Program-made: the position numbers and the translations under genes
The notes under the pieces: model-generated
What the model was told of the DNA's origin: nothing
What the model saw: the letters and a program-made list of their open reading frames with translations, nothing else
Database searches by the model: none
Origin: a virus
Taxonomy: Duplodnaviria; Heunggongvirae; Uroviricota; Caudoviricetes
Virus record (IMG/VR): IMGVR_UViG_2554235419_000004
Reading direction: 5' to 3' (one strand)
Length of the DNA stretch: 32,959 nucleotides
In this document: in pieces, positions 3,591-26,320 of the stretch
Layout of the letters: each line of letters starts with the position of its first letter
Numbering within the stretch: position 1 is the first letter of the stretch

Positions 3591-6038
3591 TTAACCGTCA
3601 TGCATCATGCTGGCACGGGCGCGCGCACGTTTATCCCGCTCGTATTTTTCGAGCGCATCCTGTAACTGGCGGTCGAGCTGAGTCCCCGGCGCAGTACCGC
3701 CCGTCAGACTGATGTGATATTCGTTTTTACTCTGGTCCACATAAGAGCGGCCAGCCGGTGCCGTAACCGGCTGATAAGCCTGATAGCCTGCATAAGAGCT
3801 GGTCGCCGGAATATAACCACCGGTGCCATACGTGGCGGCATGAGTTCTGGCGGCAGTCTGGTCAAGTGCGTCAGACTCTTTGTTGATAACACCGAGTTTT
3901 TCCAGTACCCAGTCAATACCACTGCGCAGTTTGTTGAACGCACTAAGCGGCAGCATCAACGCGTCAGCCAGTGCCTGCCCGAACATGACGCCCGTGTCAC
4001 GGCAACGATTCAGGGTGTCCTGGGTGGCTTTGACCGGGGCAATCAGGTTTTTAAACCACTGCCACGCGGCCTGTAACTTTTCACCCAGCCAGTCAAACAC
4101 CGGTTTAAGTGGCGTGAACAGTTCCCCCACCGGCGCAAATGCCGCTTTCAGCCCTTCCACCACACCGCCAAAGAATGCGCTGACAGGCTCCCAGTATTTA
4201 CGGATAAGCAACGCCCCGGCGACAATGGCGGCCACCACGGCCACAACCGGCCAGCTAATCGCCCCGATGGCGGTTATAACAGCACTGCCAACCGTCGTGA
4301 AGATTGCCCCCATTGCGCCTGCTGCCGCGATGATGGCATTGATGCCGGTGATAACCGGCCAGGCTACAAGACCAATGGCACCGATGATGCCAGTAAGTGC
4401 CAGCGCGCCACCGGCAATGAGGCCAATGGTTGACGCCAGTGATTTGTTTTTCTGGATCCAGCCGTCGAGTTTTAACACATACTTTGTGGCCGTCTGCGTG
4501 AGCTTACGCAGCGCGCCTTCCTGCTGGTCAAACAGGTCAGTCCCCACCGCCTCATAAGCGGACTGAAACTCCTTAAAGTCACCGCCGAGGTTGTCCTGCA
4601 TGATATTTACCAGCTCTGCGGTCTTCCCGTCTGAGGCTTTAAACGCAGCGGTCAGTTTGTCCAGCTTTCCGGTTGAGGCGGCAGTCATCAGCACAGCGGC
4701 GGCTGAGCTGGCCTCCTCCCCGAAAATGGTTTTCATGTATTCAGCCTGCTGGGCAGTACCGAGCCGGTTTTTCTCAAAACTGGCCTGCATTTCTTTCAGA
4801 ATGGTAAATACTGGTCGGGTGTTTCCCTTGCTGTCTGAGGTTTTCACACCAAGCTCTTTCAGTGCATCCCATGCTTTTCCCGTCGGTGCCTGCAGGCGGC
4901 TTAACACGGCACGGCTTCCCGTCCCCGCCATTGAACCGGTAATTTTTGCGTCATGCAGCGCCCCGACCATTGCGGCGGTTTCTTCAATGCTGACACCGGC
5001 ATTTTTTGCCACTGGTGCGGCATAGGTCAGCGCATCGCTCATACCGTCAAAATCGGCGGCGGTTTTGTTCATCGTCATGGAGAGAACATCCCCGATATGA
5101 GCGACCTTATCGTTTGAAAGCTGAAAGGCGGATTTCATCCCCATCAGCAGGGCGGCGTTTTCTTCCATCGTGCGGCGGTTCGCCAGCGCCATATTCAGCG
5201 TGACCGGCGTTGCCGCCTGAATGGCATCAACATCCCCACCGGCTTTCGCAATGATAATCTGCGCACCGGCAGCATCATCCGCCGAGGCGGCAGTATTGTC
5301 GCCGAGCTGGCGCGCCTGTTTGCGGAGCGCGGCCATTTCGGCGGAATCTTTTGCCACACCGAGCACGGCCTGCAATTCTGAGTTTTTCTGCGCAAACTCA
5401 TAACCGGGCATCAGCAGCTTAACTCCGGCCATCGTTCCCGCCGCCGCAATCCCCACACCGGCAGCGCCCACTGAGGCCATATTTCCGGCAAGTTCTTTTC
5501 CTGCCTGATAACGCTGTTTGACTGCGTTAAGTTTTGCCTGTTGTGCACTGACACGCGCCAGCGCGTCACGCTGCCGGTTAAGCTGTGCGGTGGTTTCACT
5601 GATACGGTTTTTCAGCCCCTGCTCATCATGTGCAAGATTGCGGGTATTAATTCCCACAGCGGCCAGTTCCCGCTGCTGGCGTTTAACGGAATCCGTCAGG
5701 CGGTTATATTTCGCCTGTAAGTCCTCCGCCGCACGCTTTGCGGATTCCAGCACTTTCGCCTGAGCACGGGTCGGACGTTCAGTGTTTTTAAACTGTGTGG
5801 CAAGTGCTTCGGCCTCCTGCCGTGCCTTTTCAAGTGCATGACCAGTCACGGCGAGCTGTGCACTGGTCTTGCGAAACCCCTCAATACGGGATGCCTGACC
5901 GTTCAGCTCGCGCAGTGATTTTTGTGTTTCCCGGATATCCCCCGACAGCGACTTACTCGCTGTGCGGATGGATTTAAACGGGCGGGATGCCTGGTCAACA
6001 GCCCTGAGCAATACCTGTAATTTTACATTGTTACTCAT
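3591..6038 (-). CDS. T: Tail tape measure protein gpT, 815 aa
   Basis: 815-aa ORF with Ala/Gly-rich coiled and hydrophobic segments; follows E/E' as in P2; length identical to P2 gpT as recalled. Confidence 0.85.
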   Translation of the reverse strand: MSNNVKLQVLLRAVDQASRPFKSIRTASKSLSGDIRETQKSLRELNGQASRIEGFRKTSAQLAVTGHALEKARQEAEALATQFKNTERPTRAQAKVLESAKRAAEDLQAKYNRLTDSVKRQQRELAAVGINTRNLAHDEQGLKNRISETTAQLNRQRDALARVSAQQAKLNAVKQRYQAGKELAGNMASVGAAGVGIAAAGTMAGVKLLMPGYEFAQKNSELQAVLGVAKDSAEMAALRKQARQLGDNTAASADDAAGAQIIIAKAGGDVDAIQAATPVTLNMALANRRTMEENAALLMGMKSAFQLSNDKVAHIGDVLSMTMNKTAADFDGMSDALTYAAPVAKNAGVSIEETAAMVGALHDAKITGSMAGTGSRAVLSRLQAPTGKAWDALKELGVKTSDSKGNTRPVFTILKEMQASFEKNRLGTAQQAEYMKTIFGEEASSAAAVLMTAASTGKLDKLTAAFKASDGKTAELVNIMQDNLGGDFKEFQSAYEAVGTDLFDQQEGALRKLTQTATKYVLKLDGWIQKNKSLASTIGLIAGGALALTGIIGAIGLVAWPVITGINAIIAAAGAMGAIFTTVGSAVITAIGAISWPVVAVVAAIVAGALLIRKYWEPVSAFFGGVVEGLKAAFAPVGELFTPLKPVFDWLGEKLQAAWQWFKNLIAPVKATQDTLNRCRDTGVMFGQALADALMLPLSAFNKLRSGIDWVLEKLGVINKESDALDQTAARTHAATYGTGGYIPATSSYAGYQAYQPVTAPAGRSYVDQSKNEYHISLTGGTAPGTQLDRQLQDALEKYERDKRARARASMMHDG

Positions 6039-23357: not shown

Positions 23358-23376
23358 CCCAATATTTAGATGATAA

Positions 23377-23424
23377 TTAGCCCTAGCATTTGCCGGGGCT
23401 AATAATTGCAGGATTTTATTTTTT
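23377..23424. terminator. Hairpin plus T-rich tract between convergent Q and the cargo operon (candidate bidirectional terminator)
   Basis: ttagccc...gggctaa inverted repeat (23377-23402) followed by attttatttttt on the plus strand. Confidence 0.35.
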
Positions 23425-23988
23425 CATATTGTATATAAAGTCACAAATATGCGCCAGTGATAATCTGTTATAGTTTTCCAATGTAAACACAGGATAATTA
23501 TAGCAAATTTCAGGAGGAGGCAATTGCGAGCGAACAGTTGTTTTTTTAGCTGATTGCTGCCTCCTCGATAATTTACTTATTACACCAATGTAATCCACTT
23601 TTCTTGACAAATGCCCATGTAAATTCAATACAGAATATAGCCACTTACAAAAATGAATGCCAGTAACTACCTGTTTAGCCGCACCATTTGAGTTATAAGA
23701 TTTGAGATCTATTACGATAAAATAATCTACGTCTTTGTGCGACGTAACAAAAATTCCATCACAAACAGAGCATACTCCTGGTAAAGCAGAAGATTTTAAA
23801 AATTTCCAGACTGGTTTAGAAATACTATTAGAATCTAGCGAAAATCCATAGATACCATTTCCGTTTACCAGTAATTTTTTATTTGTAGCACCTGGGTTCT
23901 CTTCGCATACAACCCAGCATTCCTGCTCTCGCATTAATTGAAATGTAGGATCGATGCAACTTTGTATTACATTGATAATATTACTCAT
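23416..23988 (-). CDS. Unknown 190-aa protein, second gene of the AT-rich cargo operon; candidate effector of a defence system
   Basis: ATG overlaps the stop of the upstream ATPase gene (ATGAGTAA, 8-nt gene overlap); GAGGA Shine-Dalgarno; AT-rich codon usage unlike the phage backbone; no motif I can assign with confidence. Confidence 0.7.
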   Translation of the reverse strand: MSNIINVIQSCIDPTFQLMREQECWVVCEENPGATNKKLLVNGNGIYGFSLDSNSISKPVWKFLKSSALPGVCSVCDGIFVTSHKDVDYFIVIDLKSYNSNGAAKQVVTGIHFCKWLYSVLNLHGHLSRKVDYIGVISKLSRRQQSAKKTTVRSQLPPPEICYNYPVFTLENYNRLSLAHICDFIYNMKK

Positions 23989-25414
23989 CTACATCCTCAC
24001 TATCAGAGGCATTCTCCACCAAGGAGTAATATATTTCATCATTATCGTCATTAATGGCATTAATTACTTCATCAAAAGTTACAGCATTAATCCCTTCATT
24101 TGACTTCTGCATTTCATTGACTGAGCCATTATCAAATAAATACGCAGCGACTAGGTTAGAGTCTAAAATTGAGTCGATGCTAATCCCTTGCTTCTGCATG
24201 ATAGCGTTTCGTTTTTCAATCATATTTTCAGAAACGCCATGCAACATAATCAAGCTATTGATTTCTTTCACAAAATAATCACTGTGAGTACTAACAATAA
24301 CCCGAATACCAGAGTTAACTAGCTTTGCTAAAAATCTTGCAATTACTCGCTGATTTGACGGGTGTAAATTTAACTCGGGTTCGTCAATCATTAAAATATC
24401 ACCAGTTTTTGCTTGGTGCTCTAAATAAAACCACAGGCCAAACAAACTTTTAACAGTGGATGACGATAAATGAAGTTCAATTTTACTTGCAGGTGTCTTA
24501 CCTTTCTTATACGTTGAAAAATAAATCTGCCCTTCAGGATCAACTGAATATTTTCCTGAAATTATTTTTTTTACTTCTTCTGCTAATTTATGAAATTGGC
24601 CATTTTTATTTTTCCTATTAACCTTAATTTCATTAAGCCAGTCTATGTAATTTGCTATAGGAGCAGAATACTTAGACTTCATTACATCCATTAATAGTGA
24701 GTTCAGATCGAACTGTTCTTTTGAGGCGTGGTGCAATAACGCAGTTCTTCTGGAACTTAATTCATTGAAAAAAAGGTGCAAGCCATTTCTTTCTGCGGGA
24801 ATTAAAAATGCTGGGCTTTCATCATACTCTATCTTTAATAACTGACTTAGAGTTAAGTTTATAAACCCATCAATTCTGGGAAAAGCAGAATCTAGCAGCG
24901 TCATTTGTATGATATTGCTATTTTTATCTTTGGATAATAGCATTACTTCTTTTTTGCCGGTTCCTATGACGAGGCTAACATCCAATTTTTTTTCATAAAC
25001 ACTTGATACTAATGATTCTTCATCTATAACCCAGTCAAATGTTGAATTAGAAAAAATTTCCTTATCATTAGTGTTGAATACATCTTTAAGCATTAAAGAT
25101 GAATCTTTATTAAATTCTCTTTTGATTAACGTAAAATTATCTTTTATCCACTCAATTACATCTAATTCAAACTTACCATTTTCACGAAGAGTTTTGGCAA
25201 AATTTGCAACTTGAGGCAATTTTAAAGATGGTGATGGCATATTTAGGAAGCCATATAACCCATACATAACCCATGTTTTACCAGTATTATTTTTTCCGCA
25301 TAAAAGCGTTAAAGGTTTTGCATTAATTTCTCCTGTAGAGATACACCCAATGTTTTTAAATGAAAATCTCCATGATGCTAATTTTTTTACGTTAATTTCA
25401 CTTTGCTTTTTCAT
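23981..25414 (-). CDS. ABC-type / AAA15-AAA21-like ATPase (OLD/SMC-like fold), 477 aa; first gene of the cargo operon
   Basis: Walker A LLCGKNNTGKT (res 38-47); Walker B/D-loop ILMIDEPELNLHP; H-loop VSTHSD; acidic C-terminal tail; AAGGA Shine-Dalgarno; AT-rich. Confidence 0.8.
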   Translation of the reverse strand: MKKQSEINVKKLASWRFSFKNIGCISTGEINAKPLTLLCGKNNTGKTWVMYGLYGFLNMPSPSLKLPQVANFAKTLRENGKFELDVIEWIKDNFTLIKREFNKDSSLMLKDVFNTNDKEIFSNSTFDWVIDEESLVSSVYEKKLDVSLVIGTGKKEVMLLSKDKNSNIIQMTLLDSAFPRIDGFINLTLSQLLKIEYDESPAFLIPAERNGLHLFFNELSSRRTALLHHASKEQFDLNSLLMDVMKSKYSAPIANYIDWLNEIKVNRKNKNGQFHKLAEEVKKIISGKYSVDPEGQIYFSTYKKGKTPASKIELHLSSSTVKSLFGLWFYLEHQAKTGDILMIDEPELNLHPSNQRVIARFLAKLVNSGIRVIVSTHSDYFVKEINSLIMLHGVSENMIEKRNAIMQKQGISIDSILDSNLVAAYLFDNGSVNEMQKSNEGINAVTFDEVINAINDDNDEIYYSLVENASDSEDVDE

Positions 25415-25665
25415 TGAGTTTCCTTAATCAATTACATACGAACTGATCAAACCATTGATCGTGTTGAAAAGTCAATACTATACTAAATAACCACGAAGAA
25501 TAGTGCTTCATTTTCCGTCAGTCCTAATAGGTTAAGATATATGGACTGTTTTCTCAAACTTGTTGCGCTCTGCTGAATCTCTCGTATGTTACTTCAATAT
25601 GATGAACATCCTAACTCTGAAACGGTAAGTCTATCGGTATTACATTTTCACATTGCATGAGCGCG

Positions 25666-25684
25666 GTGCTTTCCCCGCCTCGCC
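25666..25684. other. cos site (19-nt cohesive-end sequence)
   Basis: gtgctttccccgcctcgcc is the reverse complement of GGCGAGGCGGGGAAAGCAC, the P2 cohesive end as I recall it; sits in a GC-rich island inside AT-rich surroundings. Confidence 0.75.
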
Positions 25685-25968
25685 CGCCCGCTTCACGGGG
25701 CGGTTTTAATGCAGTTGCATAGATACTATGGATCCGCACCAGTCCTGACCGCACGCAGCCTGAACGGACATCCCCAGCGCATGCAAAAACATTCACTTGT
25801 TGCATGCATAGCTTTTTAAGTACGCCATACCGCAACTGTACATTTTTAAGCAATTGGCAACTTTAAAAAATTTACATTGCTTTCAAGACCTTATCATCCG
25901 TAGTCTCTGTTTTTTACTTTGAGCTACATCAATAAAATCTCAAACATGTTTAATGCAAAGCCCTTGTT

Positions 25969-26162: not shown

Positions 26163-26276
26163 ATGAAGAAATGCTATTACTGCATTCTCGTTCTGGCCCT
26201 CTTTGGCTATCCAAACGGTAGTCCAAGTGGTTTGTCAGTAAACGTCAGTAATATCAATGTCAGCATTATGCTTTAA
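26163..26276 (+). CDS. Small hydrophobic peptide, 37 aa (possible membrane peptide or moron product)
   Basis: AGGAGG Shine-Dalgarno 4 nt before the ATG; MKKCYYCILVLALFGYPNGSPSGLSVNVSNINVSIML; immediately followed by a strong terminator. Confidence 0.4.
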   Translation: MKKCYYCILVLALFGYPNGSPSGLSVNVSNINVSIML

Positions 26277-26285
26277 TATGCTTCA

Positions 26286-26320
26286 AACAAAAAAACCACC
26301 TGCCAGGGTGGTTTTTTTGC
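26286..26320. terminator. Bidirectional Rho-independent terminator (A7-hairpin-T7)
   Basis: aaaaaaaccacctgccagggtggttttttt: GC stem flanked by an A-run and a T-run; can terminate the small-ORF transcript (plus) and the early operon ending with A (minus). Confidence 0.7.

Follow-up and report, generated by a model that had tools for sequence, protein, structure and literature searches.

A divergent PD-T4-4-type gene pair with a predicted PD-(D/E)xK effector in the P2-like prophage of Escherichia coli W

A 190-aa open reading frame on the minus strand of a P2-like prophage in E. coli W (gene and product here called B) was placed by profile comparison in a small clade that diverges from the rest of the PD-T4-4_B family, and the gene lies directly after that of an OLD-type ABC ATPase (A). 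The analysis covered the gene pair, its family, the fold and catalytic signature of B, the ATPase motifs of A, and the prophage context. We consider it probable that B is the PD-(D/E)xK effector of a PD-T4-4 system carried as prophage cargo and coupled to its ATPase, and that it would act by ATPase-licensed abortive infection with RNA as the likelier target. RefSeq, Pfam, NCBIfam and PHROGs list this gene as hypothetical or assign it no function; in E. coli W, which is in wide laboratory and industrial use, and in the strains derived from it, the gene can now be annotated as the likely nuclease half of a PD-T4-4-type defence system in the resident prophage. PD-T4-4 has already been described, and the locus reveals no new kind of system.

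Gene organization and family assignment

The window, which is the whole 32,959-nucleotide stretch of DNA that was analysed, contains the features listed in Table 1. The B gene in E. coli W corresponds to WP_001350078.1, labelled "hypothetical protein" in RefSeq, while the A gene is labelled "AAA family ATPase"; in PHROGs both are families without an assigned function. Homologues of B were found in other Enterobacterales and in metagenomes. The residues of B to which the earlier note had drawn attention (C73, C76, D77, H84, D86, D88, FIVIDLK at 90-96, H112, C114, H124 and H126) were all found where it had placed them.

As in a PD-T4-4 operon, the A gene directly precedes the B gene on one strand, an order that was also seen in six relatives, close and distant. 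The genes overlap by 8 nt and a GAGGA motif lies a few bases 5' of the B ATG, which together indicate that A and B form one translationally coupled operon. Their GC content is ~0.33, whereas the window as a whole has 0.52 and the phage genes next to the pair have 0.55; the drop to ~0.33 spans roughly 23360-25600. A promoter scan of the minus strand gave no sigma-70-like site ahead of A. The inverted repeat between the B and portal genes is a possible bidirectional terminator of these convergent genes; the terminator scan did not call it because its loop is longer than 8 nt.

Table 1. Features of the A/B locus and its borders, with positions in the window. Percentages are over 126 aligned B sequences.
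Feature	Position	Strand	Basis
Inverted repeat, 8 bp, ATTAGCCC-N12-GGGCTAAT, in the 58-nt convergent gap between portal and B genes	23376..23403	.	Read from sequence
B, PD-T4-4_B-type effector gene, 190 aa, predicted PD-(D/E)xK (restriction-endonuclease-like) fold	23416..23988	-	Reading frame read from sequence
B Q106, first turn of helix 103-123, near-invariant fourth active-site candidate	23671..23673	-	99%; AlphaFold2
B D94-L-K96, putative (D/E)xK motif, end of strand 87-96	23701..23709	-	94: E 79%, D 21%; K96 98%
B D77, invariant predicted first catalytic Asp ("PD" position), just before strand 78-84	23758..23760	-	100% of 126; AlphaFold2 secondary structure
B D52 (FSLD motif), acidic, after strand 47-49	23833..23835	-	D 88%, E 10%
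B E29, acidic, after strand 24-28	23902..23904	-	E 81%, D 7%
A-stop/B-start overlap, 8 nt, ATGAGTAA	23981..23988	-	Direct sequence reading
A, PD-T4-4_A-type OLD-family ABC ATPase gene, 477 aa, putative sensor/regulator partner	23981..25414	-	PADLOC, Pfam, closest solved sequence
A H-loop region VSTHSDY, residues 374-380	24275..24295	-	Conserved in 6 relatives
A Walker B / D-loop ILMIDEPELNLHP, residues 340-352	24359..24397	-	Conserved in 6 relatives
A ABC-signature-like LSSSTVKSLF, residues 316-325	24440..24469	-	Conserved in 6 relatives
A Walker A GKNNTGKT, residues 40-47	25274..25297	-	Motif position; conserved in 6 relatives
P2 cos 19-mer, exact match to GGCGAGGCGGGGAAAGCAC; bounds the low-GC A/B cargo opposite the portal side	25666..25684	-	0 expected by chance

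B matched the PADLOC model PD-T4-4_B (PDLC04037) with an E-value of 1.2e-15 (55.8 bits, residues 2-155 against model positions 3-160 of 190), and no further PADLOC family matched it at E ≤ 1. The match is remote but specific at the level of sequence profiles. Neither Pfam nor NCBIfam has a family for B. A word-index search with B returned only nine close relatives, all from Enterobacterales. When these nine were used as the query profile for a HMMER scan of 1.84 billion representatives, 135 representative clusters were obtained, nearly all of them stand-alone proteins of 165-215 aa (about 185 aa). PD-T4-4_B was matched by 122 of the 126 aligned homologues (best E-value 4.7e-86), which places B in a divergent clade of that family; 23 of the 126 also matched the related candidate family PDC-M47B. 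Identity to B was 54-99% within the clade and 30-35% for the nearest relatives outside it. Scanning all 126 members against Pfam and NCBIfam gave isolated sub-threshold matches only, several of them to PD-(D/E)xK families.

A word-index protein search with the 126-sequence profile gained few distant members, and a related-locus search with the alignment of close relatives returned one locus. No match to B was found by tblastn in the phage and plasmid collections, and in a megablast of the locus against phages the cos flank alone was matched. The clade of B is limited to P2-like prophages of Enterobacterales.

For A, the PADLOC model PD-T4-4_A (PDLC04033) gave an E-value of 2.1e-112 (374.7 bits, residues 16-465 against model positions 2-458 of 460), followed by PDC-M47A (1.5e-81), AriA (1.8e-29) and Old (2.2e-15), and also PtuA and GajA. 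The earlier note had regarded the fold of B as unassigned, a statement that is out of date now that both members of the pair match PD-T4-4 models. In Pfam, A matched AAA_15 (6.1e-26) and AAA_21 (7.7e-17), both above the cut-offs, and its closest solved sequence was the OLD-family protein 6p74 (E-value 1e-06). Judged by these matches and its motifs, A is an OLD-type ABC ATPase with the motifs intact; LSSSTVKSLF is taken as the signature motif from its position ahead of Walker B.

Fold and active site of B

Conservation was computed over the 126 aligned sequences, in which mean column identity was 16%. The earlier note had pointed to a resemblance to PD-(D/E)xK nucleases, naming the D-x-K of FIVIDLK and three acidic residues before it. 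Part of this stood: D77 and an acidic residue at 94 were each present in 100% of the sequences, and K96 in 98%. The near-invariance of these positions in so diverse an alignment argues that the D77/D94-x-K96 pattern is beyond chance. The other two acids, D86 (22%) and D88 (23%), were rejected as catalytic residues; they lie in or beside the hairpin turn.

An AlphaFold2 model of B built on the 126-sequence alignment was confident (pLDDT 90, pTM 0.88). It consisted of helix 4-11, three short strands, a long hairpin (78-84/87-96), helix 103-123, strand 131-139 and a C-terminal beta/alpha unit, so that the alpha-beta-beta-beta-alpha-beta core of the PD-(D/E)xK superfamily was found in the model. 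D77 precedes the first hairpin strand, D94-x-K96 lies in the second, and Q106 is in the first turn of the next helix; this matches the superfamily pattern, in which the second core strand has a conserved Asp at its N-terminal end and the third carries (D/E)xK. By its order along the predicted secondary structure, the layout is the canonical PD-(D/E)xK arrangement. Such a model had been proposed in the earlier note as a check, and the elements and conserved residues came out in nuclease order rather than in a fold unrelated to nucleases. Foldseek searches of the PDB and BFVD with the B model gave nothing at E ≤ 1e-3, while the best weak matches (McrC, DdmD, PaqCI, bunyaviral cap-snatching endonucleases and UL24) all belong to this superfamily. 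A sequence search of the PDB with the B family profile gave no match even at E ≤ 10.

D77, D94, K96 and Q106 are the predicted metal-binding and catalytic residues. E29 and D52 would probably assist the active site, a role that we infer only. Residues 141-159 (~23512-23568), between strand 131-139 and the C-terminal unit, form a basic loop modelled with low confidence (pLDDT ~59) that is partly conserved (R143 72%, K148 63%, T151 70%) and is a candidate for surface contacts with nucleic acid or with the ATPase. Compared to the solved nucleases NucS (2vld), Can2 (8q3y), McrC (6hz4) and the FokI cleavage domain (2fok), to which its identity is just 6-16%, B is a free-standing protein of ~190 aa that carries an additional beta-meander at its N-terminus and is extended by a beta/alpha element at its C-terminus.

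The earlier note had offered a second reading, in which B is a degenerate HNH or zinc nuclease like Septu PtuB with a metal site drawn from C73, C76, H84, H112, C114, H124 and H126. Some of these residues are partly kept (C76 75%, H124 62%, H126 49%, C114 48%) and tend to co-occur, with an odds ratio of 7.5 for C76/C114 when kinship among the sequences is ignored. The hairpin 78-96 followed by a helix bears a superficial likeness to a beta-beta-alpha unit, and a side remark in a 2026 preprint assigns an HNH nuclease to PD-T4-4 (10.64898/2026.07.10.737580). Against this, H84 (20%), C73 (14%) and H112 (10%) are poorly conserved, and C76, C114, H124 and H126 occur together in 28 of the 126 sequences (22%). 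B matched no PtuB or HNH profile in PADLOC or Pfam, and named HNH enzymes were absent from the Foldseek match lists for the PDB and BFVD. In addition, C114 and H124 are predicted to be unable to share a metal ion because they are ten residues apart on one helix. We regard this reading as hardly credible. The four residues C76, C114, H124 and H126 might instead give the clade a feature, structural or regulatory (metal or redox), that is absent from most of the family.

Published sources are in conflict on the PD-T4-4 effector, which is HNH in one (10.64898/2026.07.10.737580) and PD-(D/E)xK in others (PMC12137116, PMC10952713, 10.1101/2025.07.10.664194). For the founding PD-T4-4B, HHpred matched PD-(D/E)xK families only, weakly (34-76% probability) and over residues 77-119 (Vassallo et al., PMC9519451). 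The conservation and fold data obtained here support the PD-(D/E)xK sources over the HNH preprint. Taken together, the conservation of positions 77, 94, 96 and 106 as opposed to the Cys/His residues, the AlphaFold2 model and the weak fold matches support the PD-(D/E)xK reading and reject the HNH/Septu one, and the interpretation in the earlier note was partly supported.

Prophage setting and distribution

On one side the A/B pair is flanked by P2-family capsid, scaffold, terminase and portal genes, and on the other by the exact 19-mer of P2 cos, GGCGAGGCGGGGAAAGCAC, and the gpA replication-endonuclease gene. As low-GC cargo, the pair sits between the portal gene Q and cos, in the variable region of the E. 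coli W P2-like prophage. As cos lies between the ATPase gene and gpA, the cargo is on the portal (Q) side of cos, which would be the extreme left of the packaged DNA. On the P2 map, old and tin are on the gpA side. Vassallo et al. described the variable region between gpA and the portal gene of P2-like phages as a defence hotspot (PMC9519451).

The locus was 100% identical in E. coli W and in strains derived from it (LY180, KO11FL and DH5alpha-labelled records); among 5,426 complete E. coli genomes, just 19 carried the whole system. In Pantoea, Cronobacter and Scandinavium, close relatives are found at the corresponding site, in the order cos, ATPase, B, portal gene. Three distant metagenomic relatives have other settings, and in these B is always directly 3' of an AAA_15/AAA_21 gene of 424-456 aa.

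The cos-like 19-mers of the Scandinavium, Pantoea and Cronobacter relatives differ from P2 cos at 2-3 positions; the cos or cos-like 19-mer is at 4463-4481 in relative locus L002, 4414-4432 in L007 and L008, and 4473-4491 in L009. In the last of these, from Cronobacter sakazakii (QIRX01000003.1), the ATPase at 4570-6008 was called as two ORFs of 143 and 322 aa with an intact B downstream, and the system in this prophage is probably inactivated (a pseudogene).

Two other observations were made near cos in the window. A GC-rich hairpin, CCGCCCGCTTCACGGGGCGG, followed by a T-rich tail, TTTTAATGCA, is found at 25684-25703 (plus strand), its first base coinciding with the final one of the cos 19-mer. 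The hairpin was scored as a terminator-like element but may rather belong to the cos/terminase recognition region. Between cos and gpA, a moderately low-GC stretch contains an ORF of 37 aa without annotation, MKKCYYCILVLALFGYPNGSPSGLSVNVSNINVSIML (26163-26276, plus strand), with AGGAGG a few bases 5' and a strong stem-loop with a T-run, aaaaaaaccacctgccagggtggttttttt, 3' of it (~26288-26318). This ORF could be a second cargo gene, encoding a small hydrophobic peptide.

Proposed mechanism and comparison with known systems

PD-T4-4 of E. coli ECOR58 (RCO57999.1 and RCO57988.1) was validated experimentally as an anti-T4 system by Vassallo et al. in 2022 (PMC9519451), and its protection against T4 is also reported in 10.1101/2025.07.10.664194. 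Like the pair described here, it encodes an ABC ATPase (AAA_15/AAA_21, ~460-480 aa) and, after it, a protein of ~190 aa, with operon lengths of 1973 nt in ECOR58 and 1999 nt here, and in both the PD-(D/E)xK-like core begins at about residue 77. The E. coli W pair differs in that the sequence of B is remote from the PD-T4-4_B model, position 94 is D rather than the family-majority E, its clade carries a specific Cys/His set unlike the founding system, and its place is between portal and cos of P2-like prophages, in contrast to the ICE-like element that carries the ECOR58 system. Family membership is assigned from profiles and an anti-phage role would follow by homology.

WonAB, from the WASA-1 prophage of Vibrio cholerae, is likewise a prophage-borne OLD-type ABC ATPase with a small PD-(D/E)xK-variant nuclease, and its authors related it to PD-T4-4 by structural modelling (PMC12137116). 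Its defence depends on both genes, on the ATPase motifs and on the nuclease lysine. It is a lysis-independent abortive infection in which translation ceases while the chromosome remains intact and phage DNA continues to replicate, and an rRNA or tRNA target was suggested (PMC12137116). Of the known systems, WonAB provides the best model for the mechanism of the A/B pair. WonB (16.1 kDa) is smaller than B; the WonA-type ATPase differs in its inserts and C-terminal extension, and the nuclease is distinct in some related operons (PMC12137116).

Complex formation, ATP dependence, the abortive outcome and the substrate are drawn here from homologous systems. A dimer of A would hold B and regulate it by binding and hydrolysing ATP, a phage cue arising after infection would license the B nuclease, and its activity would shut down the infected cell, giving abortive infection. 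By analogy with WonAB, the substrate would more likely be a tRNA or rRNA of the translation apparatus than bulk DNA, and this step is the weakest part of the mechanism. The specific proposal that the B clade comprises RNA-directed PD-(D/E)xK tRNases or rRNases, licensed by an OLD-type ABC ATPase during infection, is offered tentatively and is open to serious doubt. If true, the pattern of an ABC ATPase sensor with a translation-killing RNase would reach a restriction-enzyme fold. This emerging pattern has been proposed or reported for PARIS AriB and WonAB, and for P2 Old in a 2026 preprint.

It is also conceivable, and in our view unlikely, that B is a DNA-cutting, restriction-like effector modelled on Hachiman, AbpAB or Shedu, in which case the ATPase would sense foreign DNA or a phage cue and phage DNA, or phage and host DNA, would be degraded. 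Purified A and B of the ECOR58 system (EcPD-T4-4) formed higher-order complexes and cut none of 11 DNAs in vitro (E. coli, a plasmid and nine phages; 10.1101/2025.07.10.664194), although a missing activator could explain this inactivity. The intact chromosome and replicating phage DNA in WonAB-protected cells (PMC12137116) also argue against DNA cutting. The compact A/B pair of E. coli W is a convenient model for the question of RNA versus DNA cutting, with clear target residues in B (D77, D94, K96 and Q106) and in A (Walker A K46).

A simple toxin-antitoxin pair acting by sequestration, or a catalytically dead adaptor with a restriction-enzyme fold, is highly improbable. Pfam does label AAA_21 as "putative AbiEii toxin, Type IV TA system", the A and B genes overlap as in many toxin-antitoxin pairs, and overproduced WonB is toxic (PMC12137116). 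However, WonB is toxic only together with WonA and the ATPase activity of WonA, so that simple sequestration is ruled out, and WonB K71A lost both defence and toxicity (PMC12137116). In B itself, the near-absolute conservation of D77, [DE]94, K96 and Q106 at a mean column identity of 16% suggests catalysis and not a dead scaffold.

Operons of the type "OLD-ABC ATPase + novel REase" were reportedly described by Krishnan et al. in 2020 and are grouped here with WonAB. PARIS (AriA/AriB), P2 Old, Gabija GajA and Septu PtuAB combine an OLD-family ABC ATPase sensor with a nuclease effector, as here, and Old and PARIS occupy P2/P4 hotspots. Their effectors are TOPRIM in Old, AriB and GajA and HNH in PtuB, from which the PD-(D/E)xK of B differs; B matched none of the PARIS, Old, GajA and PtuB effectors in PADLOC, and no AriB, Old or TOPRIM (DUF4435) match was found for it in PADLOC or Pfam, just the ATPase resembling AriA and Old. 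Because the pair shows the features of PD-T4-4 and of PD-(D/E)xK nucleases and lacks those of HNH/Septu and TOPRIM effectors, it is best described, from its profiles, as a divergent example of the PD-T4-4 family.
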